Assembly (NCBI GenBank): GCA_036504095.1
Contig: DASXVS010000032.1
Span: 18,690-82,689 of the forward strand
DNA from: Armatimonadota bacterium
GTDB taxonomy: Bacteria > Armatimonadota > DTGP01 > JAKQQT01
DNA: 64,000 nt
Reading direction: 5' to 3'
Made by a program: the position numbers and the translations under genes. Each line of letters starts with the position of its first letter. The stretch's first letter is position 1. Shown here one piece after another: positions 28,093-56,121 of this stretch. Under the pieces are notes generated by a model. The model was not told the DNA's origin and made no database searches. It saw nothing but the letters and a program-made list of their open reading frames with translations.

Positions 28093-31000
28093 GTGAAACG
28101 AACTCATAAGAAACTAGGATATCTGGCAGCGTTGGCGGCGGCGTTGACGCTCGGTGGGGTCAGCCGTGCCGCTATTCGCGACATCCCCGGCAGCTACGCC
28201 AGCATCACGGATGCGGTGAATGCCGCCACGCCGGGCGACACGATCCGGTTTTCATCGCCGGGCACATTCCCCTCGATGACCGGAGGCATCACCAAGAACC
28301 TGGCCTTCGCCGGGCCCACGAACGGCCACGTGACTATCACGCCGCCGCTTGCCGGTGGCCGCGTATTCTCGATCGGCGCCGGCGTGACGGTGTCGTTTGA
28401 CCACGTGACCATCGACGGGGGCGTGCTCACGTCAGGCACCGACCGCGGCGCAGGCATATTGAACGCCGGAAACACGACCCTCACAAACTGCACCGTCAGC
28501 CACAACAGCGCGGCGGCATCGGGGGGCGCCATCTACAACAGCGGCGGCGCCGCGCTTTCGATGACGAACTGCACCATCGCCGGCAATACCGTCACCGGTG
28601 GCGCCACCATCGGTGGCGCGGCTATCAGCAACGGCGGGACCGTTGTGCTCGAAAACTGCACGGTCGCGTACAATACCAGCAACGGCGTAGCGGGAGGCCT
28701 GGACAATCGGAACAGCAATTCGTTCACGATCCAGAACACGCTGGTGGCCGGCAACACGGGAGGGAGCAACCCGGACGCCGCGGGGCCTTTCGCATCGCAG
28801 GACTACAACCTGGTGGGCAACGGCACAGGCGTAACGTTCACCGGCGCGACATCGCACAATCAGGTCGGGACAAGCGCGGCCCCCATCGATCCCCGGCTGG
28901 GCCCGCTTCAAGACAACGGTGGCGCCACCTTCACCGTCGCGCTCCTGCCCGGCAGTCCGGCCATCGACGCCATTCCCGGCGCGGCGCCCGCCAATTTCCC
29001 GGCAATTGACCAGAGGGATTCCGCTCGCCCCGTGGATGGTGGCGACGGCGACAACATACCCGAGGGTGATATCGGCGCCTATGAGGCGGATGCGCCCGTT
29101 GCATTCTTCGTTGCCACGACCGGCAGCGACTCCAACACGGGCGTGACGGCGAACCAGCCGCTGCGCAACATCGTGACGGCGATCAACCGGTCCGCTCTAT
29201 CGGGCGTTATCACCATCGCGCCGGGCACGTACACCGAAAACCTTGTGCTCCAAAAATCCGTGGCGCTGCAGGGAACGCCCGGCGCTGCATCCACCACCAT
29301 CATCCAGAGCATCAACGACGCAACGCGAAGGACCACCCTGGTGGTCTTCCCTGTAACGACGGTCTACCTGTCCGACCTCACGATCACCAACGGCCTCGCT
29401 CCAAGTACGGGCATCGGGTCGGGCGGCGGGGTGTTCAACGAGGGAACTCTGACTCTGCATCGGTGCACCGTCACCGGGAATACCGCCGCATACTCCGGCG
29501 GCGGCATCGTCAACTACCTCAATGGCACGATGTACCTCTCGGACTCGACGGTGAGCGGCAATTTCGCCGACCAGGCGGCCGGAATCGAAAACGACGGTCT
29601 CATGGTAATGAGCGGCTGCACCGTGTCCGGAAACAATGCCAACACCGGAGCGGGCGGCGGCATCGGCAACACCGATATCCTCACGATGACCAACTGCACG
29701 CTGAGCGGCAACTCAGCGGGCCAGGGCGGCGGTATCTACGCTGCCACAGGGTCAATCTACCTGCGCAACGTCACCATCAGCGGCAACACCGCCACGGACG
29801 GGGGCGGCATCGCCAATGTATCATCAACCTCCTTCCCGGACTCCGGACTGCTGAGTGATAACAGCGTCATTGCCGCCAACACGGCAACCACAGGGCCGGA
29901 TATCTCGGGAGAGTTCGTGAGCAACCTCGGCTACAATTTCATCGGCAGCCCCAAGGACGCGGTCATCACGTCCAAGCTGGTCGACCAGATCGGGACGGCG
30001 GCGATACCCCTCAAGCCCTATCTCGGGACCCTGGCGGACAATGGAGGGCCGACGCTCACAATCAACCCCCTGGTCGGCAGTCCGTTGATCGATACCGGCC
30101 CGTCGGGAGTTGCCGGCCCGGCGACGTTCCCGGATACGGATCAGAGAGGCGTGCCTCGGCCCATCGGTGCGAAGAGCGACATCGGGGCCGTTGAATATCA
30201 GCCGAGATTCATCGTCACCCGCACGGCCGATGACGCGTCCCCCGGATCGCTCCGCTGGGCGATCGCTCAGGCGAATGCGACTAACAACGCCGTGATCTCG
30301 TTCGCCATCGCGCCGATCGGCAGCGCCGGCGGGGTGAAGACGATTGTGCTCAGCGCAACATATGGCGGGCTGCCGGTGATCACCAGCAAGATATTCATCG
30401 ACGGATGGAGCCAGGGCGGCGTAACGTATTCGGGCACGCCGCTGATCGAGATCAACGGGCAGAACATTCCGTCATCGTTCGGCCTCAACGTTCAGGGTGC
30501 CGGCTGCGTGATCCGGGGCCTGGCGATCAACCGGATGCTGAACGTTTCCGGCAATGCCTTCGGAATCGGCCTGTTTAACTCAGGCACGAACGCCTGGATC
30601 TATGGCTGCGCTCTGGGTACCGATCCGAGCGGGACCATCGCGCTCGGCAACGGCCAGGGCGGAATCTGGGCCGGCGCGGGCGGCGCGTTGATAGGCTCCA
30701 ATATGGATGGCGTCAACGACGCCGCCGAAGCCAACATCATCTCGGGCAACGCGGTCGAGGGAATCCTGGTCACTTCGTCCGGCAACGTGATCGCCGGAAA
30801 TTCCATTGGCACGGACATCACCGGCGCATCCCAACTTGGAAATGGGGTGGGGCTGGCGTATGGCGGCGTGCGGGTGGAGAGCGGCACGGGCAATCGGATC
30901 ACGCAGAACTCAATCGCCTTCAACTACGGCCTCGGAATCGACCTCGGTGGCGACGGTGTCACCTTGAACGACCTCGGCGACGATGACGGAGGCGCCAACA

Positions 31001-45320: not shown

Positions 45321-46817
45321 TCAGCTTCGAAGGCGCAGGCCGCGCGGGATGACGACGCGGTCGAGGAGGTCGAACCCGCCCTGGACAAGCAGGGCGAGGA
45401 CAGCCACCGGTATGGCGCCCTGGAGGATGAGGTTGTTGTCCCGCAGGGCAATGCCCTGGAGGATGGGGTTGCCAAGGCCGCCGGCGCCGATCAGCGCGGC
45501 CAGTGTCGCCGTGCCGACGTTGATGACGGCGCTGGTCTTGATGCCGGCCATGATGGAGGGCGTGGCCATCGGAAGGAGAACCCGCACCAGCCGCGCCATC
45601 GGAGACAGGCCCAGCGCCTCCGCCGCTTCGGAAAGGTTGGCGGGGATGGTCGAGAGGCCTGTGTAGGTATTGCGAACGATGGGCAGCAGGCTGTACAGGA
45701 AGAGCGCCACGAGCGAAGGCACGATGCCGATGCGGTGAAAGAGCGCGATGAGGAAGGCGAGAAGCGCGAGCGAGGGGATCGTCTGGAGCAGGCCGGCGCC
45801 GGAAAGCGTGAGCCCGGCGAGGAAGCGGGAGCGGGCCGCCAGTATCCCGAGCGGTACGCCCACGAGGATCGCAGCCAGTAGCGACACGGCCACGAGTTCC
45901 ATATGCGTGAGAGTGTTCCGGGCGATGTCCCGCGCCACGCTGGAAACGGGCGCCGCGCCGGTGTCCTGGCCCAGCGTATCGCGCAAGAGCGCCGCGGCGG
46001 CGTCCTCCGAGGTGCGCTTCCCCAGGACGACCGCGGCGTTCGCCCGTATCATGGCCGCTTCATCCACGTGGCCGGCGAGCCGTCCCATGGCGGCGAAAAC
46101 GGCGGGCGCGCGGCGCGGCAGTTCCAGCCGGTAGAGGAGGACGGCATCGTACCGGGGGAAGAAGCCCCGATCGTCTTCCAGCACCCTGAGGTTCAGTTTC
46201 GCGATCTGGGCGTCCGTGGTGTAGATGTCCATCACATCCGCCTCGCCGTTGGCGAGCGCGCCATAGGCCAGGTCGTGCTGAATGCCCCGCACGTCGCGCA
46301 TGTGCAGCCCGTAGACGCCGGCGAGGCCGGGAAAGCCGTCCTTGCGGCCGATGAACTCGTGCGAAAGCGCGAGGCGAAGGTCCGGGTGCGCGGCGAGGTC
46401 CGAAAGCTTGTAGAGGCCGTATTTCTTCTGTGTACCCGGCAGCACGGCGAGCGCGTACCCGTCGTTGAACCCGAGGGAATCGCTTACGCCGATGCCGCGC
46501 GGCTTCAGAAAAGCGCGCATTTCGGCGACGGATGGCCTTCCGCGGGACTTCATGAGCACCTCGGCGATCGTGCCGGTGTACTCTGGATAGATATCGATGC
46601 CGCCGGACTTGAGCGCCTGGTACACGATCTCCGTGCCGCCCAGGTTCTTTCGGTGTTCCACCTCCGCCGACCCGGTTTGCCGCGCGAGCTGGGCCAGCGC
46701 ATCGCCCAGTATCCACGATTCCGCGAACGCCTTCGAGCCGATGGTCACCGCCGGCCGCGCGTGGGCGCCGGCGGCGCCGAGCAGAAGCCACAGCAGAAGC
46801 GCCGCGGTGCGCCTCAT
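45321..46817 (-). CDS. OpuC/OpuB-type ABC transporter, fused substrate-binding domain + permease (glycine betaine/choline/ergothioneine-type family).
   Basis: Start at [20 protein letters not shown] (signal) overlaps the ATPase stop (ATGA). An OpuAC-like SBP domain is followed by an OpuCB-like permease with EAA-loop-like [10 protein letters not shown]. The upstream part of the listed 770-aa ORF is a shadow of the ATPase gene. Confidence 0.8.
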
Positions 46818-47569
46818 CCGGCAGCCTCCGCGGTATCGCTCCAGAGCGGGCGCTGGGCACGGATGAACTCCGTGACGAACGGGTCCGCCGGCTGCTCCAG
46901 CAAATCCCTGACGGCCCCGCGCTGAACGATGCGACCGTCCCGCATCATCGCGATCTCGTCCCCCAGGTAGCCCGCCTCGCCCATATCGTGCGTCACGAAG
47001 AGGACCGTCTTGTTCAAGCGCTGAAAGATCGCCTTCAGGTCCTCCTGGAGGCCGGAGCGGACGATGGGGTCCAGCGCGCCCAGAGGCTCGTCCATCAGAA
47101 GCGCCTTCGGGTCCAGCATCAAGGCGCGCATCAGGCCCACGCGCTGGCGCTGTCCGCCGGAGAGTTGCACGGGGTAGCGGTCCAGAAGGTACGGCTCGAT
47201 GCGCGCCAGGTCGCACAACTCCGATAGGCGCTGGCCGATGCGTTGCTCGTCCCAGCCTAGGTGCCTGGCGACGAGGGCGATGTTGCCGGCGGCCGTGAGG
47301 TGGGGGAACAGTCCGCCGTCCTGTATCACATAGCCGATACGCCGTCGCAGCGCCATGCGTGTCTTCTCCGTCATCGCCGCACCGTCGACCGCGACGGCGC
47401 CGGAATCGGGCGTGAGGAGGCCCACCACGAGGCGCAGCAATGTGGATTTTCCGCACCCGCTCGGACCGATGAGCACAAGCGTGCGCTGCGGCGGAACCTC
47501 CAGAGTGGTGTTGGCGAGGGCAACCTTGCCGTCGAAGGACTTGCTTACGTTGTTGAGCGATATTTGCAT
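46814..47569 (-). CDS. ABC transporter ATP-binding protein of the OpuCA/EgtV-type.
   Basis: MQISLNNVSKSF start. Walker A GPSGCGKST, signature LSGGQRQRVGLMRAL, Walker B LLMDEPLGALD. Confidence 0.9.
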   Translation of the reverse strand: MQISLNNVSKSFDGKVALANTTLEVPPQRTLVLIGPSGCGKSTLLRLVVGLLTPDSGAVAVDGAAMTEKTRMALRRRIGYVIQDGGLFPHLTAAGNIALVARHLGWDEQRIGQRLSELCDLARIEPYLLDRYPVQLSGGQRQRVGLMRALMLDPKALLMDEPLGALDPIVRSGLQEDLKAIFQRLNKTVLFVTHDMGEAGYLGDEIAMMRDGRIVQRGAVRDLLEQPADPFVTEFIRAQRPLWSDTAEAAG

Positions 47570-47731
47570 GGCATGAGGCAAAACCCTTTCGGGTCTTGCC
47601 TGAGTATGCCACGCGCGCTTCGCCGGCTTCCACTTACCCCGCATGAAACGGGGGCGGTTGCTATTGGCTGGGTAAGCCCAGGCTCAACGCCCACTTCACC
47701 GCCGGCACGACTGAGAGCCGCCCGCGCGGCT

Positions 47732-48928
47732 CTAGAAGCGATACTGCCCCTGGAGCGTGAGAAGATCGTCGGTGCGGGAGCGACCCTGCTGCAACGCCCG
47801 GTCATAAAGGGTGAGCTTCGGTGACTCCCAGGCCACTGTCAAGCGGATATGGTCGTCCACATCCTGAATCGCGGCGATTCCCCAGCTCCGAATCTCCCCG
47901 TCCCCATCGAGCCGGAATCTGTTATCCGTGTCCGGATCGAATGAGGCGTACCGCGCGGCCAGCGAAAGGCTGTTGGACAGAGGGTGTTCGTAAGAGGCGA
48001 ACCAGGCCCGCGCCGGAGCCGTGCCGTATGGGTCCCCCTCCCCAAGGTTGAGCGCCATATCGCGCGCACCGATGTACTCGGCCCGGGCTTCGCCGCCTGC
48101 GACATCTTCCGCATGGGCCGCCACTGCCCATCGCTTGCGGTCGATGTGCATCCCGGACACGGTTTGCTGGCCCTGGTAAAGCGATATCGACGCCTCAGCC
48201 CGGGGGTTGAGCGAGTGGTGGATTCGGGCTATGAGGTCTTTGTAGTTGTCGGTATCCTGAAGCCGTCCGGCCTGACGGACCGACCTCCCGTTCGTGATCG
48301 CCAGGTCGAAATCCGTCGTCCTGGACAGTCCTCGGGAGACATTGAAGCCCTGATCACGTGTGTGGGGGAACAGCGTGGACCATCCCGCGGGGAGTTCCGG
48401 GAATTCCCGGTCAGCCGAAGACCGCTCGATCTCCGCGCCGAAGGGATATAGAAACTGGCCGCTGCGCAGGGTCCAACCAGCAACGTGGTTCCGGCGCGGC
48501 GTGATGTGCCAGTCGAAGTAGGCATCTCGCACCTTCGTATTATTCTGGCCACCATCAAGAGACAGGACGAAGCGCCCGTTCTCCGTCCGATGGCTGATAC
48601 GCAGGCGCGCCCTTCGCACGAGGAAATTGCTGGAGGGCTGAACGTTCTTTTGAAACGTCGCGCGGGCCTGGATGTACCCGGTGATGGTTGTGCGGTTCTG
48701 GCCGGCGGCGGCCGCGCCCCCCACTGCTCCGACGGGAGCTTCTGCGCTCGCGTGGGCAGACGCAACCTCCTTCAGGGCATCGGCGCGAATCGCGTCCGCG
48801 TCGGTCTGCGTGATGATACCGCGCCTCACCAGGCCGCGGAGGATGGCTTCGCCCATCTCATCCGCCCGCGCGGCCGTTCCGGCCCCTGCCAATATTCCAA
48901 TAACGAGGATCGCCAGCAATCTCTTCAT
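47732..48928 (-). CDS. Outer-membrane beta-barrel porin-like protein.
   Basis: Signal MKRLLAILVIGILAGAGTAARA. Alternating amphipathic beta strands. The C-terminal ...LTLQGQYRF ends in Phe, as in OM beta-barrels. Confidence 0.6.
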   Translation of the reverse strand: MKRLLAILVIGILAGAGTAARADEMGEAILRGLVRRGIITQTDADAIRADALKEVASAHASAEAPVGAVGGAAAAGQNRTTITGYIQARATFQKNVQPSSNFLVRRARLRISHRTENGRFVLSLDGGQNNTKVRDAYFDWHITPRRNHVAGWTLRSGQFLYPFGAEIERSSADREFPELPAGWSTLFPHTRDQGFNVSRGLSRTTDFDLAITNGRSVRQAGRLQDTDNYKDLIARIHHSLNPRAEASISLYQGQQTVSGMHIDRKRWAVAAHAEDVAGGEARAEYIGARDMALNLGEGDPYGTAPARAWFASYEHPLSNSLSLAARYASFDPDTDNRFRLDGDGEIRSWGIAAIQDVDDHIRLTVAWESPKLTLYDRALQQGRSRTDDLLTLQGQYRF

Positions 48929-49108
48929 TGTTCGTCTCCAGTGTTCAATCGCGTTTCTGCCGCATATGGTCAGTCTACAGCCCGTCAACCGGGAAACACA
49001 CCGTCGAAATGCCTCATGGAACATACATCGTCCCATTGGTGTCGAAAATATAGAGAATACTGAATATTGATGAGGGAGGTCATCGAAGGAGCAGACGTCG
49101 CATCCCGG

Positions 49109-49260
49109 TTTGGGCTGTCCACACTGGGCCGTTTCGTTGACACCGCTTTCGTGGCGGTAGGCTACTCAGCTTGGGCTGTAGATCGTCCGTCAGTTAGACG
49201 TATGGGCTTCCCCCAGACCATTTCAGCTCTCCAATGAACGGCCAAACATTCCTGGGCTGT
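49109..49260. repeat. Three direct copies of the 9-mer (T/C)TGGGCTGT in the intergenic region upstream of gene 49295.
   Basis: TTGGGCTGT at 49109, TTGGGCTGT at 49171 and CTGGGCTGT at 49252, spaced 62 and 81 bp apart. Confidence 0.4.
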
Positions 49261-49294
49261 CTGCACGCAATAGTTCGATTTTAGGAGGACCCGT

Positions 49295-50389
49295 ATGATT
49301 CATCTCGATAGTGAGACACAAAGGAAGATCAAAGTACCCTACGCCCTTCGCCGCGTACCTGCCGAATGCCTCTCAACCGTGCTCCCGCTTCCCCTCAAGA
49401 TCAATGCGGGGGACATCGCGTTGGCGGAGGTGGAGACGATCGGCAAGAACAACCGTCTGGAACTCACGTCGGGGCGCAACGCAATGCTCCACGTGGGGGA
49501 TCGGATTGCGGTTGTATTCGGCAACAGATACGCCACCCAACAATTCGAGGGTTACGCCGGCAAAACATCAAAGGGCTGTGACCTGATGTCCATCGGCGGC
49601 CTCTGCGGCCAGGTAAAGAGCAAGCACGCGGGCGTATCCGGCCCAACCAAGCTCCGACTACTTGGACTGCTTGGCGACTCGGTCGGCTATCCCTCCTCGC
49701 TTCGGCACTTCCCGGTTGAGCCGACTTACGACGGCCCAAGACCCCGCGTCGTCGTCGTATGCGGATCGGCGATGGATTCCGGGAAGACGCATGCCGCCAT
49801 GAGCCTGGTCATCGGCCTCAAAAAGACGCACGAAGTGGCAGGTGTGAAACTCACAGGAACCGCCGCCGGCAAAGATACCTGGCACCAACTGGACGCCGGA
49901 GCATGCGTCGCTTTGAATCACGTAGATGGCGGCTTCGAGTCCACCTACATGTGTTCACTGGACGAGCTGCTGGATCTGAACCACCGCTTGGTCGCCGAGG
50001 CGGCCGCCCACGGGGCGGAGTGGGTGGTCATGGAGATCGCCGACGGCCTCTTCGAGCGTGAAACAGCCGCGCTGCTTCAGTCGCACTGCTTTACATCAAC
50101 CGTGGACGCGTGGATATTCTCCGCCGGCGACCCCCTGGCCGTACACGGTGGCGTTGGGATTATGCACGGGTGGGGGCTGAAACCAGTCGCGGTTTCCGGG
50201 CTGGTTTCAATGAGCCCTCTCGGTATCCAGGAAGCGGAGGCAGCGACGGGTCTGCGGTGTCTCACCGCCCAGGAACTCCAGGCCGGGGTACTGAATGACA
50301 CCCTCCTGTCCCTGCCTCGCGCCATGGTACCCCATGGTGGTCGCGTTGAGTGCGACGACTCCCCTCGGCACGAGCTTCTGGCCGTATGA
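49295..50389 (+). CDS. Hypothetical P-loop NTPase-like protein (possibly DUF1611/BioD-like).
   Basis: Walker-A-like VVVVCGSAMDSGKTHAAMSLVIGL in the C-terminal half. The N-terminal ~140 aa are beta-rich. No confident family assignment. Confidence 0.5.
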   Translation: MIHLDSETQRKIKVPYALRRVPAECLSTVLPLPLKINAGDIALAEVETIGKNNRLELTSGRNAMLHVGDRIAVVFGNRYATQQFEGYAGKTSKGCDLMSIGGLCGQVKSKHAGVSGPTKLRLLGLLGDSVGYPSSLRHFPVEPTYDGPRPRVVVVCGSAMDSGKTHAAMSLVIGLKKTHEVAGVKLTGTAAGKDTWHQLDAGACVALNHVDGGFESTYMCSLDELLDLNHRLVAEAAAHGAEWVVMEIADGLFERETAALLQSHCFTSTVDAWIFSAGDPLAVHGGVGIMHGWGLKPVAVSGLVSMSPLGIQEAEAATGLRCLTAQELQAGVLNDTLLSLPRAMVPHGGRVECDDSPRHELLAV

Positions 50390-52809
50390 GCCGCGGCCGC
50401 GTGTACGAATGGGCTCCCGACGCCACCCGACCGCTCGGCGGTCGAGTGGCGTCGGCCATCGTGCGTCTTCCCCGGCTGGAACCCTCTCAGGAAGGGCGCC
50501 CACGCCTGTGGGGTCGATACGTGCGAGTAAGGAACGCGAGCTGGCTGAACGTAAGCGGGCCCGATGGGGAATCCTATCGACCGGAACCTGTCGGCTGCGC
50601 GCAACCGGACGCCGACGGGGATTTCCTGTACGAGCCGGTGCGGGGAGGCGGACGGGTAGACAAGATGCCGGTCCCGGGGCCACTCCGCCGGGCCCGCTAC
50701 ATCGAAGCGTCCCGCTTCGGTGAGGTGAACACCTATTATCACCTGGACCTCATCGCTGGGTACATGGACGGCTTGCTTCACGAATTGGGCATGCCATCCC
50801 TGCCGCCCATCGTTGCGGTGGTCAACGCCCATCATGCGGCGACAGAGACGGATCTGGTTCGCGACGGAGTGCTGAAGAGCAAAGGTTGGCTGCCTTTTCA
50901 GGGCGGACACTACCGGCTGCCCAGCCGAACGTTCGACATCCAGGAATACGAACCCGTATCCCCTGATGGTGAGATACATCTCGGTCCCGGCTGGCAGTTG
51001 TGGACACACGGGGCTTTGCCGGATTGCGCCGGCACCGCGTACCGTGCCAACGCCTCGCACAACGCCGGGATACTGTACCACGAATACGGCCACCATCTGA
51101 CAAGGCATACCGCCGATTTCCGGGCGAATTCGTTGCGTGCGCCGGATAACCAGAACAACCGAAAGTCGGCGATGGACGAGGGAACGTGCGACTACTGGGC
51201 CGCCGTGATGCTTCAAACGCCCCACATCTGGGCGTGGCACCGCCGGCACGACGAACAGGAGGTTCACGCCCGAAGCCTTGTTTCCTCCGCGACAATGGCC
51301 GATTTTGACGCGTCACCGACCGCCGACGCGCATGCGAACGGCACGATCTGGGGAACGGCGCTTTGGGATTTCCGAACGGCCGTCGCCCTCGCCGAGGCCG
51401 GGGACGGCCGTCGCGCCGACCGTCTTGTCCTGCAAGCGCTCCACCTTATGGGGCGCTGGTACGGGGAGAAGGAAAGGGCAACCGTGAAAGGCGTATGCAG
51501 GGCCAGACAGGAGTTCGCGACAGGGCTTGCCGCTCTGCTTCAGGCCGACAACGATCTGTATGGTGGTGCGTATCGCGACAGCCTCCTCTCCGCGTTCGCC
51601 CGGCGCGGGATCACTCCCGATCCGGGCTGGAACGCTCCCGCGAGAGACGTACTGCTTCGCGCCCGCCTGCATGCGTCCGAGGAGGGCGGGCAGCCTGAAT
51701 CCGCAGTTTCGCCGATAGACAAACTCCGGAAGCACGTGCCTGCAGACGAAATCCCCTGCGACGGGGATCTGCTTTCGGCGGAGGGCCTGGCGGACCGTTT
51801 GGCACGCTGGGAGGATCCACCGTTGTCCCTTCTCGCCGGCGGTGACGTGATGCTGGGCGGACGAGCCAAATCGGTACTCCAGACCGGCGGGTTCGACCAC
51901 CCGTTCGCCGCCGTGCTCCCGCTCCTGCGCCGCTCCCCCGTCGTTCTGGCCAATCTGGAGGGGCCGCTGGCGCGAAAGGCGCAGAAGCAGTCGCGCAACT
52001 ACTCCTATAAGGCGAACCCACGCTCGGGATCCGCCCTCGCACGGGCCGGCATAAACGTCGTTACTGTTGCGAACAATCACCTGACGGATTGCGGCCGGGA
52101 AGGCATCCTGGAGACCCTGGATGCGCTCGAATCGGCAGGGGTGGCGCCCCTCGGCGGCGGAAGGGATGCCGAAGCCGCGCACCTGCCCGTAGTCATGGAT
52201 TCGGGCGACATCACCATCGGGCTGCTCGGCTATTATTGGAACCGACGATGCGCCGCCATAGGTGATCTCCCCGGCGGCGCCATGGACACGCCGGAATCGC
52301 TGGAGGATGATATACGGCGCCTCCGAGGGCGTGTTGACCGCGTGGTCGTGGCGTTCCACTGGGGCGTACCCTACGAGCGGGAGCCATTGGCGGAAGACCG
52401 CGCCAAGGCGCAATTCGTCATCGACTGCGGCGCCGACGCCGTCATCGGCTGCCATCCACACGTCCTCCAGCCATTCGAGGTCTACCGGGACCGGCCCATT
52501 TTCTACAGCGTCGGAAACTTTGCGTTCGGATCCGGCAACAGCAAGGGTGAAGGTCTGCTGGTGGGGCTGCGGTTCGATCCGACTTCTACCACCGTATCGG
52601 TGTATCCGCTCTACGTGAAGAATCGCGATCCCCGAGTAGACTACCAGCCCAAGGTGCTGACAGGCGCGGGCGCCGAGAGCGTGCTGCGACGGCTTAAGGG
52701 GATTTCAGGAACCGCGGGGCAAATGCTCAACATCGAGGGTGGCCGCGGCGTTCTTCGTCTCCCGTTCGATACCGCCATAACGAAAGAGGCATCCGTGAAT
52801 GCTGCGTAG
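50386..52809 (+). CDS. Fusion protein: N-terminal zincin-like HExxH domain + C-terminal CapA/PGA_cap-family metallophosphoesterase-like domain.
   Basis: Start ATG 50386 overlaps the upstream stop (ATGA). HEYGHHLTRH is an HExxH motif. The C-terminal half (LLAGGDVMLGGR...ANLEGPL...NVVTVANNHLTDCG...GCHPHVLQP...) matches the CapA family. Confidence 0.6.
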   Translation: MSRGRVYEWAPDATRPLGGRVASAIVRLPRLEPSQEGRPRLWGRYVRVRNASWLNVSGPDGESYRPEPVGCAQPDADGDFLYEPVRGGGRVDKMPVPGPLRRARYIEASRFGEVNTYYHLDLIAGYMDGLLHELGMPSLPPIVAVVNAHHAATETDLVRDGVLKSKGWLPFQGGHYRLPSRTFDIQEYEPVSPDGEIHLGPGWQLWTHGALPDCAGTAYRANASHNAGILYHEYGHHLTRHTADFRANSLRAPDNQNNRKSAMDEGTCDYWAAVMLQTPHIWAWHRRHDEQEVHARSLVSSATMADFDASPTADAHANGTIWGTALWDFRTAVALAEAGDGRRADRLVLQALHLMGRWYGEKERATVKGVCRARQEFATGLAALLQADNDLYGGAYRDSLLSAFARRGITPDPGWNAPARDVLLRARLHASEEGGQPESAVSPIDKLRKHVPADEIPCDGDLLSAEGLADRLARWEDPPLSLLAGGDVMLGGRAKSVLQTGGFDHPFAAVLPLLRRSPVVLANLEGPLARKAQKQSRNYSYKANPRSGSALARAGINVVTVANNHLTDCGREGILETLDALESAGVAPLGGGRDAEAAHLPVVMDSGDITIGLLGYYWNRRCAAIGDLPGGAMDTPESLEDDIRRLRGRVDRVVVAFHWGVPYEREPLAEDRAKAQFVIDCGADAVIGCHPHVLQPFEVYRDRPIFYSVGNFAFGSGNSKGEGLLVGLRFDPTSTTVSVYPLYVKNRDPRVDYQPKVLTGAGAESVLRRLKGISGTAGQMLNIEGGRGVLRLPFDTAITKEASVNAA

Positions 52810-54649
52810 ATGGACAAGAGGCGACCCGGCGACTCCGTGGTGGTGGGACCTCCTCCCGCTGCTGCGGCCTTTTCGGCGCCCCTTATTCTGGGCGGGACTC
52901 GCGATGGTGGGCGACGCGATGGTCACGGCGCTGCGCCCGTGGCCGCTTAAGGTAGTCACCGACCGTGTTCTCTCCCACAGAGCCACCCGTGTGCCGTTCA
53001 TCGGCCACTGGCTCCAGCATGCTCCTCTTGACAGGATGCACATCCTGTATGGCGCGTGCGCTACAACCCTCCTGATCGCTCTGACTACCGGGGTCTTGAC
53101 ATACCTCTATACCCGCTCGATGGGCGATATCGGCCAACGATTCGGCTACATTTTGAGGCGGGATCTCTTCGCCCATATGCAGCGCCTCTCGCTCCGGTTC
53201 CACGATCGGCAGCGAACGGGGGACCTGATCACGCGCATCACATCCGATGTGCGGTCCATCCAGGACCTGGTGGAGAACGGCGCGATCACGCTCATGAGCA
53301 ATGCCTGCCTGCTGGCCGGGATGCTCGTGTTGATGTTCTGGCTGAACTGGCGCTTCGCCCTGGCGGCGCTTTCCGTGGCGCCACTGCTGTTCTGGACGGT
53401 GTTCCGCTACACCCGCAGGATCAAGATCGCCGCGCGCCAGGGTCGCATCAGCGACGGCCTGCTCGCCTCGGTTGCCCAGGAAACCCTGGCGTCGATCCGT
53501 GTGGTGCAGGGATTGGCCCAGGAAGAGCAGCAGGACGAAAGATTCCGCATCCAGAGCGAAAACAGCCTGGAAGCCTACAGAGTAGGCGTTTACTACCAGG
53601 CGAAAGTTGCTCCCTATGTGGATATGCTCGCCGCCATTGGGCTCGCCGTCGTTATGTGGTACGGGGCCACGCGGGTGCTGAGCGGTGAGCTGACCACCGG
53701 GGACGTGATTGTGTTCTTCGCCTATGTTACGAACCTCTACAGCCCCATGAAAGCGCTTTCGCGTCTGTCTTATTCCTTCAACAAGGCCAGTGTTGGCGGC
53801 GAAAGGGTTGCGGACGTGCTGCGCACCCAGCGCGAAGTGACCGATCACAAGGGCGCTCATCCCGCGCCTCGCCTGCGGGGCTCCATCGAATTTCAGGACG
53901 TCTGCTTCGAGTACATTCCGGGCCGCCCAGTGCTCAACCATATCAACCTCTGCATACAGCCGGGAGAGCGGGTGGCCATTGTTGGATCAACCGGGGGCGG
54001 AAAGAGCACGTTGGTCAGCCTGCTTCCACGCCTCTACGATCCGACCTCCGGATCCGTGCTGATCGACGGCGAAGATATCCGGAAGTACCAGCTTAACACA
54101 TTGAGGGAACAGATCAGCATGGTCCTTCAGGACTCGCTGCTGTTCCGCGGCACCGTTCGGGAGAACATTGCCTTTGCGCGGCCCGATGCGACCGATGCGG
54201 AGATCAAAGCGGCGGCGGTTATTGCGAGCGCGGACGAGTTCATCAGCCGTCTGCCTGAAGGGTATGAAACGATGGTGGCCGAACGTGGCAGCACGCTCTC
54301 CGGAGGGCAAAAGCAGCGCATCGCCATCGCCCGGGCGATCGTGCGAGACGCGCCGGTTCTCATTCTGGATGAACCCACAAGCGGCCTGGACGCGAGTTCC
54401 GAGCGCATCGTCATCGAGGCGCTTGAAAGGGCCGCGATGGGACGCACAACCCTCATCATCGCGCACCGACTTACAACGGTGCGCTTCGCGGATCGGATCA
54501 TAGTGCTGGACCGCGGCCGCATAGCCGAGGCGGGGACGCCGGAGGACTTGCTGGCAATGAACGGACACTATGCGAAATTACATCGGCTTCAGTTTGGGGC
54601 CAAATCTGCCGGCGTGGCTGTGCCGGCCCCCCCGGCCCCGTTACCCTGA
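52799..54649 (+). CDS. ABC exporter, fused permease/ATPase.
   Basis: TM region, then Walker A GSTGGGKST, LSGGQKQRIAIARA, ILILDEPTSGLD. The start may lie slightly downstream, since it overlaps the previous gene by 11 nt. Confidence 0.85.
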   Translation: MLRRWTRGDPATPWWWDLLPLLRPFRRPLFWAGLAMVGDAMVTALRPWPLKVVTDRVLSHRATRVPFIGHWLQHAPLDRMHILYGACATTLLIALTTGVLTYLYTRSMGDIGQRFGYILRRDLFAHMQRLSLRFHDRQRTGDLITRITSDVRSIQDLVENGAITLMSNACLLAGMLVLMFWLNWRFALAALSVAPLLFWTVFRYTRRIKIAARQGRISDGLLASVAQETLASIRVVQGLAQEEQQDERFRIQSENSLEAYRVGVYYQAKVAPYVDMLAAIGLAVVMWYGATRVLSGELTTGDVIVFFAYVTNLYSPMKALSRLSYSFNKASVGGERVADVLRTQREVTDHKGAHPAPRLRGSIEFQDVCFEYIPGRPVLNHINLCIQPGERVAIVGSTGGGKSTLVSLLPRLYDPTSGSVLIDGEDIRKYQLNTLREQISMVLQDSLLFRGTVRENIAFARPDATDAEIKAAAVIASADEFISRLPEGYETMVAERGSTLSGGQKQRIAIARAIVRDAPVLILDEPTSGLDASSERIVIEALERAAMGRTTLIIAHRLTTVRFADRIIVLDRGRIAEAGTPEDLLAMNGHYAKLHRLQFGAKSAGVAVPAPPAPLP

Positions 54650-54717: not shown

Positions 54718-56121
54718 ATGAGCACATACATGAAGCACCTGACCATCGCGATGGCGGTGGTGGCAGGCTGCATACTGCAGACTCGGATCGCGCGCGCAGA
54801 AACCGTTGTCGCCACCGTTACCGTGGGCGCGGCGCCGCACTCCGTGACGGTGGATTCGGTCACGAACCGCGCCTACGTGACCAACTACGGCACAACCGCG
54901 CTGCCCGGGACTACGGTGTCCGTAATCGATGGCGCAACGACAACAGACACCGTCATGAAGACAATCTCCGTAGGGATTCACCCCCGCTCCGTCTCGGTGA
55001 ATGCCGCGACGCATATGGTGTACGTGACAAACTACTTCGGCGACAGCGTATCAGTGATCAACGGAGACCCGAGCAGCCCCACCTACAACACTGTCCTCAC
55101 AACCATCGCCGTCGGGCCGCATCCGCGCACGATTAAGGTCAACCCCGCGACAAACCGCGTGTACGTGGCGAACTACGGTACCACGAGCGTGCCGGGGACA
55201 ACCGTCTCCGTGATCGACGGCAGTCCGGGCAGCGCGACATTCCACACGGTGGTCAAGACCATTATCGTGGAATCCAACCCACGGCATATCACCCTCAATC
55301 CGACGACGAATACCCTCTATGTCGCAAACGAAGGAAGCGCGAGCGTAACCGTCATCAATGGCGCCAACGACACCTTTGTCAAGACCATCCCCGTCGGTCT
55401 GAATCCGTATGACATCGCGGCCGACACGACGACTAACCAGGTCTACGTCGCCGATGCCGGAACAGACACGAATATCAGCAACAGCATCTCCGTGATCGAC
55501 GGCAACCCAGGCAGTTCCACGCTCAACACCGTGGTAAAGACCATACCGGTGGGCATCCAGCCCCGGTCCATCGCCGTGAACTCCAGGACCAACACGTTGT
55601 ACGCGGCGAATTACGGGACGGCCAATACTCCGGGGAACACTGTCTCCGTAATCAATGCAGACCCATTGAGCCCCGGGTACAACACGGTGGTGAAGACGCT
55701 GGGCGTCGGACTGAACCCTCATGCCGTCCAGGTGAACGGTTCCACTAATCGCATCTATGTCGCCAATTACGGAAGCGACACCGTTTCTGTCATCGATGGC
55801 GCTACCAATACCATCTTGCCGGTAAACCTTCCGACAGGGACCAATCCGTACGCGGTGGCTCTCAATACCACCACCGGCCGTATCTTCGTCGCAAACTACA
55901 CAAGTGACAATGTGACGATCATCCAGGGGCCGCAACCATTGCAGCCGTTCACGATCGCCGACGCTGTACTGGCGCTGAAAGCCGCGGGCGGCCTTTCACC
56001 CACCACTCCGTCAGAAGTATTGCGCTTGAACGTGGTGGACGGTTCGCCCGCCGGCGTAGTCGATTTCTTGGACGCCGTCCGCATCGCGCGCAAGGTGGCG
56101 GGGCTGGAGGCAAACCCCTGA
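54718..56121 (+). CDS. Secreted YVTN-family beta-propeller repeat protein with a C-terminal dockerin-like tag.
   Basis: About 8 repeats of ...RVYVANYG...VSVIDG...N.V..TI.VG..P. The C-terminus FTIADAVLALKAAGGLSPTTPSEVLRLNVVDGSPAGVVDFLDAVRIARKVAGLEANP is homologous to the tail of 28093..31491. Confidence 0.8.
   Translation: MSTYMKHLTIAMAVVAGCILQTRIARAETVVATVTVGAAPHSVTVDSVTNRAYVTNYGTTALPGTTVSVIDGATTTDTVMKTISVGIHPRSVSVNAATHMVYVTNYFGDSVSVINGDPSSPTYNTVLTTIAVGPHPRTIKVNPATNRVYVANYGTTSVPGTTVSVIDGSPGSATFHTVVKTIIVESNPRHITLNPTTNTLYVANEGSASVTVINGANDTFVKTIPVGLNPYDIAADTTTNQVYVADAGTDTNISNSISVIDGNPGSSTLNTVVKTIPVGIQPRSIAVNSRTNTLYAANYGTANTPGNTVSVINADPLSPGYNTVVKTLGVGLNPHAVQVNGSTNRIYVANYGSDTVSVIDGATNTILPVNLPTGTNPYAVALNTTTGRIFVANYTSDNVTIIQGPQPLQPFTIADAVLALKAAGGLSPTTPSEVLRLNVVDGSPAGVVDFLDAVRIARKVAGLEANP

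Follow-up and report, generated by a model that had tools for sequence, protein, structure and literature searches.

We describe a compact operon on a 64,000-nucleotide stretch of DNA from an Armatimonadota bacterium (GenBank assembly GCA_036504095.1, contig DASXVS010000032.1, positions 18,690 to 82,689 of the forward strand), hereafter called the window, whose first letter is position 1. Three overlapping genes, designated A, B, and C, encode a P-loop protein, a fusion of a zinc endopeptidase with a PGA_cap (CapA-family) domain, and an ATP-binding cassette (ABC) exporter, respectively. The coupling of A and B at the level of translation is genuine, and the two form the core of a three-gene operon, A-B-C, that is still uncharacterised. 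The features at the locus are as follows.

49295 to 50389, plus strand: gene A, 364 amino acids (open reading frame (ORF) table and raw sequence)
49763 to 49789, plus strand: extended P-loop GSAMDSGKT of the form G-x5-GKT, A residues 157–165
50386 to 52809, plus strand: gene B, 807 amino acids, a soluble fusion of an M36/M4-type zinc endopeptidase domain (~1–420), a variable linker (~420–470), and a PGA_cap domain (~470–795)
51079 to 51096, plus strand: HEYGHH zinc-binding and catalytic motif, B residues 232–237
51829 to 52530, plus strand: core of the PGA_cap domain with an MslH-type active site, B residues 482–715
52799 to 54649, plus strand: gene C, a half-size ABC exporter with transmembrane domain and ATPase
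47735 to 48928, minus strand: Porin_O_P-like outer-membrane channel, divergent from the operon and a possible part of the system
48929 to 49294, no strand: divergent intergenic region carrying three exact copies of TGGGCTGT

The initial annotation of this locus had reported a coupled pair in which a 364-residue protein with a GSAMDSGKT motif is joined by an ATGA overlap to an 807-residue protein that combines HEYGHH with a complete CapA-family domain, and these observations are confirmed here, while the interpretation placed on them is supported in part. In the raw sequence the TGA stop of A (50387–50389) overlaps the ATG of B at 50386; the sequence at the junction reads ggccgtATGAgc, which confirms the ATGA overlap. 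The coupling is real, and the pair was incompletely drawn in that the third gene was overlooked, as the ATG of C sits inside the 3′ end of B with an overlap of 11 nucleotides. Nor is the domain combination of B, presented as unfamiliar, a rare one: it is found in ~300 full-length clusters that are automatically annotated as 'CapA family protein'. The conservation statements made below for B refer to an alignment of 29 full-length homologues at 53–61% identity. Because the N-terminal GRVYxWxPD motif is kept in these homologues, we place the start of B at ATG 50386 and not at an upstream GTG or at the start of the 762-residue NCBI call. The latter, a 'CapA family protein' from an Armatimonadota metagenome-assembled genome (MAG) that is otherwise identical to B, is 45 codons shorter (window 50386–50520), and its start has probably been mis-called, to judge from the sequence.

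Residues 219–409 of B match Peptidase_M36 (Pfam PF02128) at 3e-10 and 40.2 bits against a gathering score of 23.3, and H232, E233, H236, and H237 are invariant. The third zinc ligand, E265, lies with D269 in the segment MDEGTCDYW, the counterpart of MGEGWSDF in Aspergillus fungalysin, and the catalytic histidine, H316, lies in AHANGTIW, the counterpart of VHAIGTVW in the same enzyme; E265 and H316 are likewise invariant. An AlphaFold model of B (predicted local distance difference test (pLDDT) score 81.6) aligns with M36 proteases at a Foldseek value of 2e-9 over 474 columns (7z6t, template modelling (TM) score on the target 0.61) and with M4 proteases, the vibriolysins, over ~430 columns (TM score on the target 0.65–0.67, of which 3nqx gives 0.67). 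Since the catalytic set is invariant and the whole fold aligns, we conclude that residues ~1–420 of B are a complete thermolysin-type catalytic domain and no linker, which removes the possibility entertained in the initial annotation that the HExxH region is non-catalytic and the motif unconserved in homologues. B shares with fungalysin (MEROPS M36) and with thermolysin and vibriolysin (M4) the HExxH motif, the glutamate of the E-x-x-x-D segment, the catalytic histidine, and alignment over the whole mature catalytic fold. Unlike fungalysin and thermolysin, which are secreted and made with a signal peptide and a propeptide, the B domain has neither and is fused to PGA_cap. Its conserved N-terminus opens straight with the catalytic domain, with propeptide/FTP and leader absent, and no hydrophobic segment, signal peptide, or transmembrane segment was found along the protein (maximum KD19 1.14). 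Because B has no hydrophobic segment it is predicted to be cytoplasmic, in contrast to both PgsA/CapA and the secreted fungalysins; A is also free of hydrophobic segments, and on their sequences both proteins are assigned to the cytoplasm.

The second half of B matches the PGA_cap profile (Pfam PF09587) at residues 482–715 with 3e-68; the match reaches 230.5 bits, where the cut-off is 27, and spans profile positions 2–254 of 255. This CapA domain had been read as a metallophosphoesterase, a description that has to be revised: as read from the 29-sequence alignment, the phosphoesterase motifs DxH and GDxxDR are replaced in B by GDxM and NLEGP. A replacement of this kind points to a site other than a phosphoesterase site, so the domain is not a classical phosphoesterase, and its closest solved relative, in sequence (6e-21) as well as in fold (8.6e-17, Foldseek, 8gqb), is the peptide epimerase MslH, which acts on the C-terminal Trp of a lasso peptide. 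The catalytic dyads of MslH are His88/Asp91 and His295/Asp11, and its Ca(II) ligands are Glu44, Asn87, His259, and His261 (PMC10406935). Seven of these eight residues are matched by invariant residues of B, D487, E525, N564, H565, D568, H658, and H692 corresponding to MslH D11, E44, N87, H88, D91, H259, and H295, where H565, D568, H658, and H692 were placed by pairwise alignment and D487, E525, and N564 by motif position. Both dyads are therefore retained (H565/D568 and H692/D487), together with three of the four Ca(II) ligands (E525, N564, and H658).

The resemblance to MslH (PDB 8GQ9, calcineurin-like fold) accordingly comprises the best solved match of B in both sequence and fold and the preserved dyads with Glu44, Asn87, and His259. 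It is set against a fold-alignment identity of only ~20%, the exchange of His261 for glycine, the fusion of B to a peptidase, and a score of 68.6 bits against the NCBIfam MslH equivalog NF038314, whose cut-off is 700; lasso-peptide genes or a lasso precursor were not found near B cassettes. B also belongs to the same Pfam family as PgsA/CapA of the PgsBCA/CapBCA systems. When pgsA is deleted in Bacillus subtilis, the poly-gamma-glutamate made has a D/L ratio of 5/95 in place of 75/25 (PMC6029982), an effect consistent, by analogy, with an epimerase role for the PGA_cap family. Like PgsA, which sets the D-Glu content of its polymer, B would act beside an ATP-dependent amide-forming partner and an export step. 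Unlike PgsA/CapA, B has no membrane anchor, PgsB (Mur-ligase-like) and PgsC were not found nearby, and export would proceed through an ABC transporter.

Protein A is a soluble, two-domain protein in which a beta-rich N-terminal domain (~1–145) precedes a SIMIBI-class P-loop domain (AF2 model, pLDDT 78). More than 1400 homologues were found, and the invariant residues are G157, M160, G163, K164, T165, K185, E247, A249, D250, and G251. The P-loop has the same G-x5-GKT form as GTDTEVGKT of dethiobiotin synthetase; in a HMMER comparison with the Mycobacterium tuberculosis enzyme the two P-loops align and K185 falls on the lysine of 'VCKPVQTG'. The best PDB folds for the P-loop domain are dethiobiotin synthetase (1dbs, 1.3e-5), DUF1611 proteins (2obn/2g0t), DgcN (7xrj), CTP synthase, and the N-terminal domain of Pta. 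Searches of Pfam (E<=0.1) and NCBIfam with A of the window returned no match, and its homologues gave weak matches only, to MobB, CbiA, DUF1611_C, and AAA_26; those to PF07755 (DUF1611_C) occur in 23 of 29 homologues with a best E of 1.1e-5, the bit scores given for relatives being 20–23.7 against a gathering score of 25. From the P-loop type, the aligned lysine, and these weak family matches, we tentatively assign A, as an orphan P-loop family, to the dethiobiotin-synthetase/CobQ/DUF1611 branch. With dethiobiotin synthetase, CobQ/CobB, and DUF1611 (2OBN, 2G0T, and the N-acetyltransferase DgcN, 7XRJ) it has in common the extended G-x5-GKT, the aligned lysine that follows strand 2, and a Walker-B-like motif, ExxDG, but the similarity is marginal and the modelled N-terminal domain is beta-rich. 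The N-terminal domain of DUF1611, by contrast, is Rossmann-like. The NCBI label on a protein identical to A reads 'DUF1611 domain-containing'; the DUF1611_N domain was not found in the A family, and A does not belong to DUF1611 proper. The N-terminal domain of A comprises ~550 clusters at 50% identity and is essentially always found with the same P-loop domain. Its fusions were considered as a functional clue and set aside, given that the longer relatives contain pieces of transposases at most and probably stem from faulty gene calls.

Gene C encodes fused ABC_membrane (156.8 bits) and ABC_tran (124.7 bits) Pfam domains and is a type IV ABC exporter of the MsbA/HlyB-like kind. The best NCBIfam match is MsbA, at 486 bits against a cut-off of 602, and HepA/HlyB types match as well; no NCBIfam equivalog reached its cut-off, and a C39 peptidase domain is absent.

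To place the operon in a wider context, a genome collection was scanned with the B alignment, which gave 68 loci, and A and C were sought by tblastn wherever the flank sufficed. MAGs that carry B belong to Armatimonadota, Chloroflexota, Acidobacteriota, Gemmatimonadota, Planctomycetota, Verrucomicrobiota, Desulfobacterota, Myxococcota, Eisenbacteria, Bacteroidota/Ignavibacteria, and Alphaproteobacteria, and cultured carriers are Bradyrhizobium embrapense (SEMIA 6208), B. tropiciagri (SEMIA 6148), and Mesorhizobium strains including Mesorhizobium loti UFLA 01-765. A lies near B in every one of the 58 testable loci, across at least 10 phyla, and immediately upstream on the same strand in 47, so that the pairing proposed in the initial annotation is syntenic at each locus where it could be assessed. 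An ABC exporter is equally constant (52/52 testable loci): it stands directly 3′ of B in 39, elsewhere in the locus in 7, and as a diverged copy next to A in 6, the last all alphaproteobacterial. Flanking genes vary from lineage to lineage, with two-component or sigma-54 regulators and outer-membrane channels recurring; as cassette neighbours, over 69 loci, A and the ABC exporter alone recur. Because identity is flat at 53–61% over at least 10 phyla, horizontal transfer is suggested, and A-B-C has probably spread as an operon in this way. A compositional island was looked for and rejected, the GC content of the operon being similar to that of its flanks.

A scattered distribution of this kind could also be explained by a detoxification or immunity module, in which B degrades or inactivates a toxic peptide that has reached the cytoplasm, C pumps the remains out, and the patchy spread reflects selection for resistance. 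The flat identity over so many phyla, the flanks that differ in almost every lineage, and the frequent two-component and sigma-54 regulators would all fit such a module. Yet a PADLOC search of A and B against defence families was without a match, a result on which anti-phage defence in particular was rejected; there is no resistance-gene context, the composition of the operon matches its surroundings, and both A and the ligases of the variant clusters described below would be left unexplained. We consider a detoxification role very improbable.

The association of A, B, and exporter survives three gene orders, namely A-B-C, A-C-DUF2490-B (Bacteroidota and Ignavibacteria), and an ABC/A unit divergent from CphA-like-B. 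The last is found in a diverged alphaproteobacterial clade (L029 and L031–L035; for example L032, 1000–12072), where the ABC gene and A on one strand lie opposite a 787-residue gene and B. The 787-residue gene, which overlaps the start of B in L031–L035, is cyanophycin-synthetase-like (NCBIfam PRK14016, 464 bits against a cut-off of 877; PDB 7lgm, 5.5e-102), and an ATPgrasp_ST-acylphosphatase fusion (L031 and L032 only) and a beta-lactamase-family gene (L029 and L031–L033) are also present in the clade. Reduced forms occur too. In L040 (5907–8248), L046 (5132–7622), and L059 (4091–6578), A is followed by an M36-only protein of 415–439 residues without PGA_cap or ABC exporter, and the genes that follow are unrelated housekeeping genes, isocitrate lyase or phosphoenolpyruvate carboxylase; in L070 (24–3148) an M36-only protein precedes an ABC gene and a response regulator. 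These M36-only forms may represent cassettes in decay or the smallest form of an A-peptidase pairing.

Diverged A sequences, when used to scan metagenomes, yielded 80 further loci (L072–L151) that define a sister clade of A, and none of the 80 carries an M36 or PGA_cap gene. The sister-clade operon consists of A, an ABC exporter (42 loci), an alpha/beta hydrolase (34), and Porin_O_P (14) or Porin_4 (9), often beside an extracytoplasmic function (ECF) sigma factor, a putative anti-sigma factor, and an S8 subtilase (for example L076, 9926–17375, and L095, 986–6096); the cluster looks like an uncharacterised envelope or export system. In one subtype A, an alpha/beta hydrolase, and HlyD are followed by 7TM_transglut fused to a D-Ala-D-Ala-ligase-like ATP-grasp domain, the fusion genes being:

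L108, 9762 to 11708: 7TM_transglut-ATP-grasp gene
L125, 8131 to 9966: 7TM_transglut-ATP-grasp gene
L135, 3528 to 5477: 7TM_transglut-ATP-grasp gene
L141, 13187 to 15058: 7TM_transglut-ATP-grasp gene

The 7TM_transglut and ATP-grasp domains resemble those of the poorly understood RloB/RloC system of Pseudomonas. Across all variants A is constant, an export component is present nearly always (L040, L046, and L059 lack it), the hydrolase is interchangeable, and both ATP-grasp amino-acid ligases and outer-membrane channels turn up repeatedly as accessories.

Another alternative takes A out of biosynthesis altogether. As a SIMIBI NTPase, A might serve in the maturation or regulation of B, for instance through metal insertion in the manner of HypB, UreG, or CooC, leaving B, with its two metal sites, to do the chemistry alone. 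HypB, MobB, MinD, and GPN GTPase folds score about as well against A as dethiobiotin synthetase does, the minimal conserved pair is A with an M36-only protein, and a flexible loop of A holds conserved C95, C104, H111, and C156. We nevertheless regard a purely accessory A as highly unlikely, as A of the sister clade occurs without a metalloenzyme partner, with the ABC exporter and alpha/beta hydrolase coming straight after it, the P-loop is of the amidoligase G-x5-GKT type with the dethiobiotin-synthetase lysine, and CxCC and NKxD motifs are absent from the conserved columns.

The gene anatomy, the translational coupling, the conservation of catalytic residues, the cytoplasmic placement of A and B, and the strict co-occurrence of the genes are observed; the chemical steps, their order, and the nature of the substrate are inferred. 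The likeliest reading, offered tentatively and at somewhat less than an even chance, is that A-B-C serves to make or tailor, inside the cytoplasm, a small peptide-like product with amide linkages and to export it. A would form or activate an amide linkage, either by activating a carboxylate with ATP, as dethiobiotin synthetase and CobQ do, or by transferring an acyl group, as does the DUF1611 enzyme DgcN. The zinc endopeptidase domain of B would cut a peptide bond to generate a new C-terminus, whose terminal residue the PGA_cap domain, with the His/Asp dyads of MslH, would invert from L to D. C would then pump the product over the inner membrane, and an outer-membrane channel (porin) would complete the exit. 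As substrate, an anionic oligomer of amino acids or a short peptide is probable. The initial annotation had suggested an ATP-dependent synthesis or modification enzyme that acts together with a hydrolase of peptides or polymers, and the evidence is consistent with that suggestion, given the dethiobiotin-synthetase-type P-loop and lysine of A and the ATP-grasp and CphA-like neighbours in other lineages.

Several findings weigh against a cytoplasmic synthesis-and-export route of this kind. For A, the likeness to dethiobiotin synthetase is weak (fold E ~1e-5, TM score ~0.5 for the P-loop domain only, sequence E 0.04–0.2), generic SIMIBI NTPases (SRP54, HypB, MobB; MinD) score about equally, and for its N-terminal domain no relative with a known function could be detected. 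For B, the MslH metal ligand His261 corresponds to an invariant Gly660, and MslH is, to our knowledge, the sole PGA_cap member for which epimerase chemistry has been demonstrated biochemically. The loci in which A is paired with an M36-only protein (L040, L046, and L059) imply that the epimerase and export steps are not obligatory, and the sister clade of A uses unrelated hydrolases. No ligase of a known type was found within 7 kb of ~50 main-type cassettes or anywhere in the 64-kb window, and no conserved small ORF was found beside the cassette (700 nucleotides upstream of A and 800 nucleotides downstream of C, ~60 loci).

A further alternative is the maturation of a peptide made on the ribosome and altered after translation (RiPP), with a precursor gene located elsewhere. 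In that case the M36 domain would remove a leader or follower, PGA_cap would epimerise the new C-terminal residue, A would modify the peptide, and C would export it as McjD does. Protease, tailoring enzyme, and ABC exporter together make up the classic layout of a RiPP cluster, and MslH, the closest characterised relative, acts on a peptide C-terminus. A conserved precursor peptide was nonetheless sought by an all-against-all comparison of ORFs of 12–120 residues from ~60 cassettes and rejected, as only antisense shadows of neighbouring genes emerged; neither a recognition element nor a lasso cyclase nor another RiPP core enzyme is among the recurrent neighbours, and the NCBIfam MslH score falls far below its cut-off. 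Maturation of such a peptide is distinctly unlikely.

In yet another alternative the locus processes and secretes a non-ribosomal amino-acid homopolymer like poly-gamma-glutamate or cyanophycin: a ligase encoded elsewhere would build the chain, B would trim the polymer with its M36 domain and epimerise chain ends with its PGA_cap domain, as PgsA may do in PgsBCA, A would prime or modify the polymer, and C with an anion porin would export the product. The CphA-like gene that overlaps the start of B in L031–L035 is a candidate polymer ligase, to which further ATP-grasp genes may be added; PGA_cap is the family of PgsA/CapA; pgsA controls the D/L content of poly-gamma-glutamate; the third-best NCBIfam match of C is the 'cyanophycin metabolism-associated ABC transporter'; and an anion-type Porin_O_P adjoins the operon here and in the A sister clade. 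On the other side, genes resembling CphA, PgsB, or PgsC are absent both from the window and from the 7 kb around ~50 main-type cassettes, the cyanophycin-transporter match of C (424 bits against a cut-off of 880) is weaker than its MsbA match, and B lacks the membrane anchor of PgsA. Such a homopolymer system is unlikely.

For the synthesis and tailoring of a small peptide-like product, precedents exist in ligase-plus-peptidase pairs such as RimK/RimB (PMC11957051). RimK/RimB, RloABC, and cyanophycin synthetase/cyanophycinase each couple an ATP-dependent amino-acid ligase with a dedicated peptidase, and genuine ATP-grasp and CphA-like ligases adjoin the variant A/B clusters. Unlike in those pairs, the protein families are all different and the cassette in the window has no ATP-grasp gene. 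Each domain comes from a known superfamily, and the logic of ligase, peptidase/epimerase, and exporter resembles that of the poly-gamma-glutamate, cyanophycin, RimK/RimB, and MslH systems. The cassette lacks defining features of PgsBCA, of MslH, of secreted M36 enzymes, and of DUF1611. Literature searches on DUF1611, on DgcN, on PGA_cap with metallopeptidase, and on cyanophycin with CapA returned no description of a fusion between M36 and PGA_cap, of the family of A, or of the cassette.

The region between the operon and the divergent porin-like gene (48929–49294) is, on the sequence, a divergent promoter region shared by the two. Three evenly spaced copies of a 9-mer had been reported there as likely transcription-factor sites. 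Three copies are indeed present, the exact unit being the 8-mer TGGGCTGT (49111–49118, 49172–49179, and 49253–49260, plus strand; the only three on either strand of the 64-kb window), but either 9-mer extension is common to two of the three copies only and the spacing is uneven at 61 and 81 nucleotides. An 8-mer occurring three times within 260 nucleotides is expected ~2 times per 64 kb of Markov-1 sequence, and 13 such cases were seen in the real window; because such triples are common both by chance and in the window, the case for a function of the repeat is weak. Neither TGGGCTGT nor comparable repeats were found upstream of A in 46–47 other loci, and the repeats, although real, are a weak and unconserved lead. 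In the intergenic region, an Rfam match at E<=1, a sigma-70-like site, and a sigma-54-like site were all not found, and a riboswitch, RNA element, or promoter upstream of A was rejected on these null scans. A 55-residue ORF (49070–49237, plus strand, MREVIEGADV...) spans two TGGGCTGT copies by eye and belongs to no conserved small-ORF cluster. Elsewhere in the window, 28480–29790 is dense in 8-mers that each occur thrice within 260 nucleotides (AACTGCAC, GCAACGGC, GACGGCGA, TGAGCGGC, and CAACACCG), which suggests a repeat-containing gene or array.

The porin-like gene itself matches Pfam Porin_O_P at 1.5e-7, and its likely start is placed at 48928 because Met37 of the long ORF opens the stretch MKRLLAILVIGILAGAGTAARA, which resembles a signal peptide. 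As a conserved partner of main-type cassettes the window porin was rejected, since no BLAST-detectable homologue occurs in L001–L071; its membership in the A-B-C system is uncertain, and it may cooperate with the operon. Upstream of it, 45321–47644 on the minus strand holds two overlapping ORFs that, judged from their translations, resemble an ABC ATPase and a permease/substrate-binding fusion of the glycine-betaine/choline type. Just 3′ of C, a gene at 54718–56121 (plus strand) encodes a YVTN-type beta-propeller repeat protein whose N-terminus MSTYMKHLTIAMAVVAGCIL is signal-peptide-like by eye; it does not recur downstream of the cassette at other loci.

A broader proposition, which we hold to be doubtful, is that A-B-C and its sister clusters represent an unrecognised, widespread route to exported D-residue peptide-like molecules or short poly-amino acids, independent of non-ribosomal peptide synthetases and of ribosomal precursors, with A as a new amide-bond-forming class and B as the first 'cut-then-epimerise' bifunctional enzyme. 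If the likeliest reading given above is right, hundreds of soil, sediment, and rhizobial bacteria from more than 10 phyla would share a compact, transferable three-gene kit that produces and exports a compound composed of amino acids, and the orphan P-loop family of ~550 clusters would acquire a function. A cytoplasmic branch would be added to a protease family otherwise known only from secreted enzymes, MslH-type epimerase chemistry would extend well beyond lasso peptides, and the finding would bear on the long-standing uncertainty over the role of PgsA/CapA in poly-gamma-glutamate synthesis. The cultured Bradyrhizobium and Mesorhizobium carriers, among them B. embrapense, B. tropiciagri, and M. 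loti UFLA 01-765, make the system experimentally accessible.

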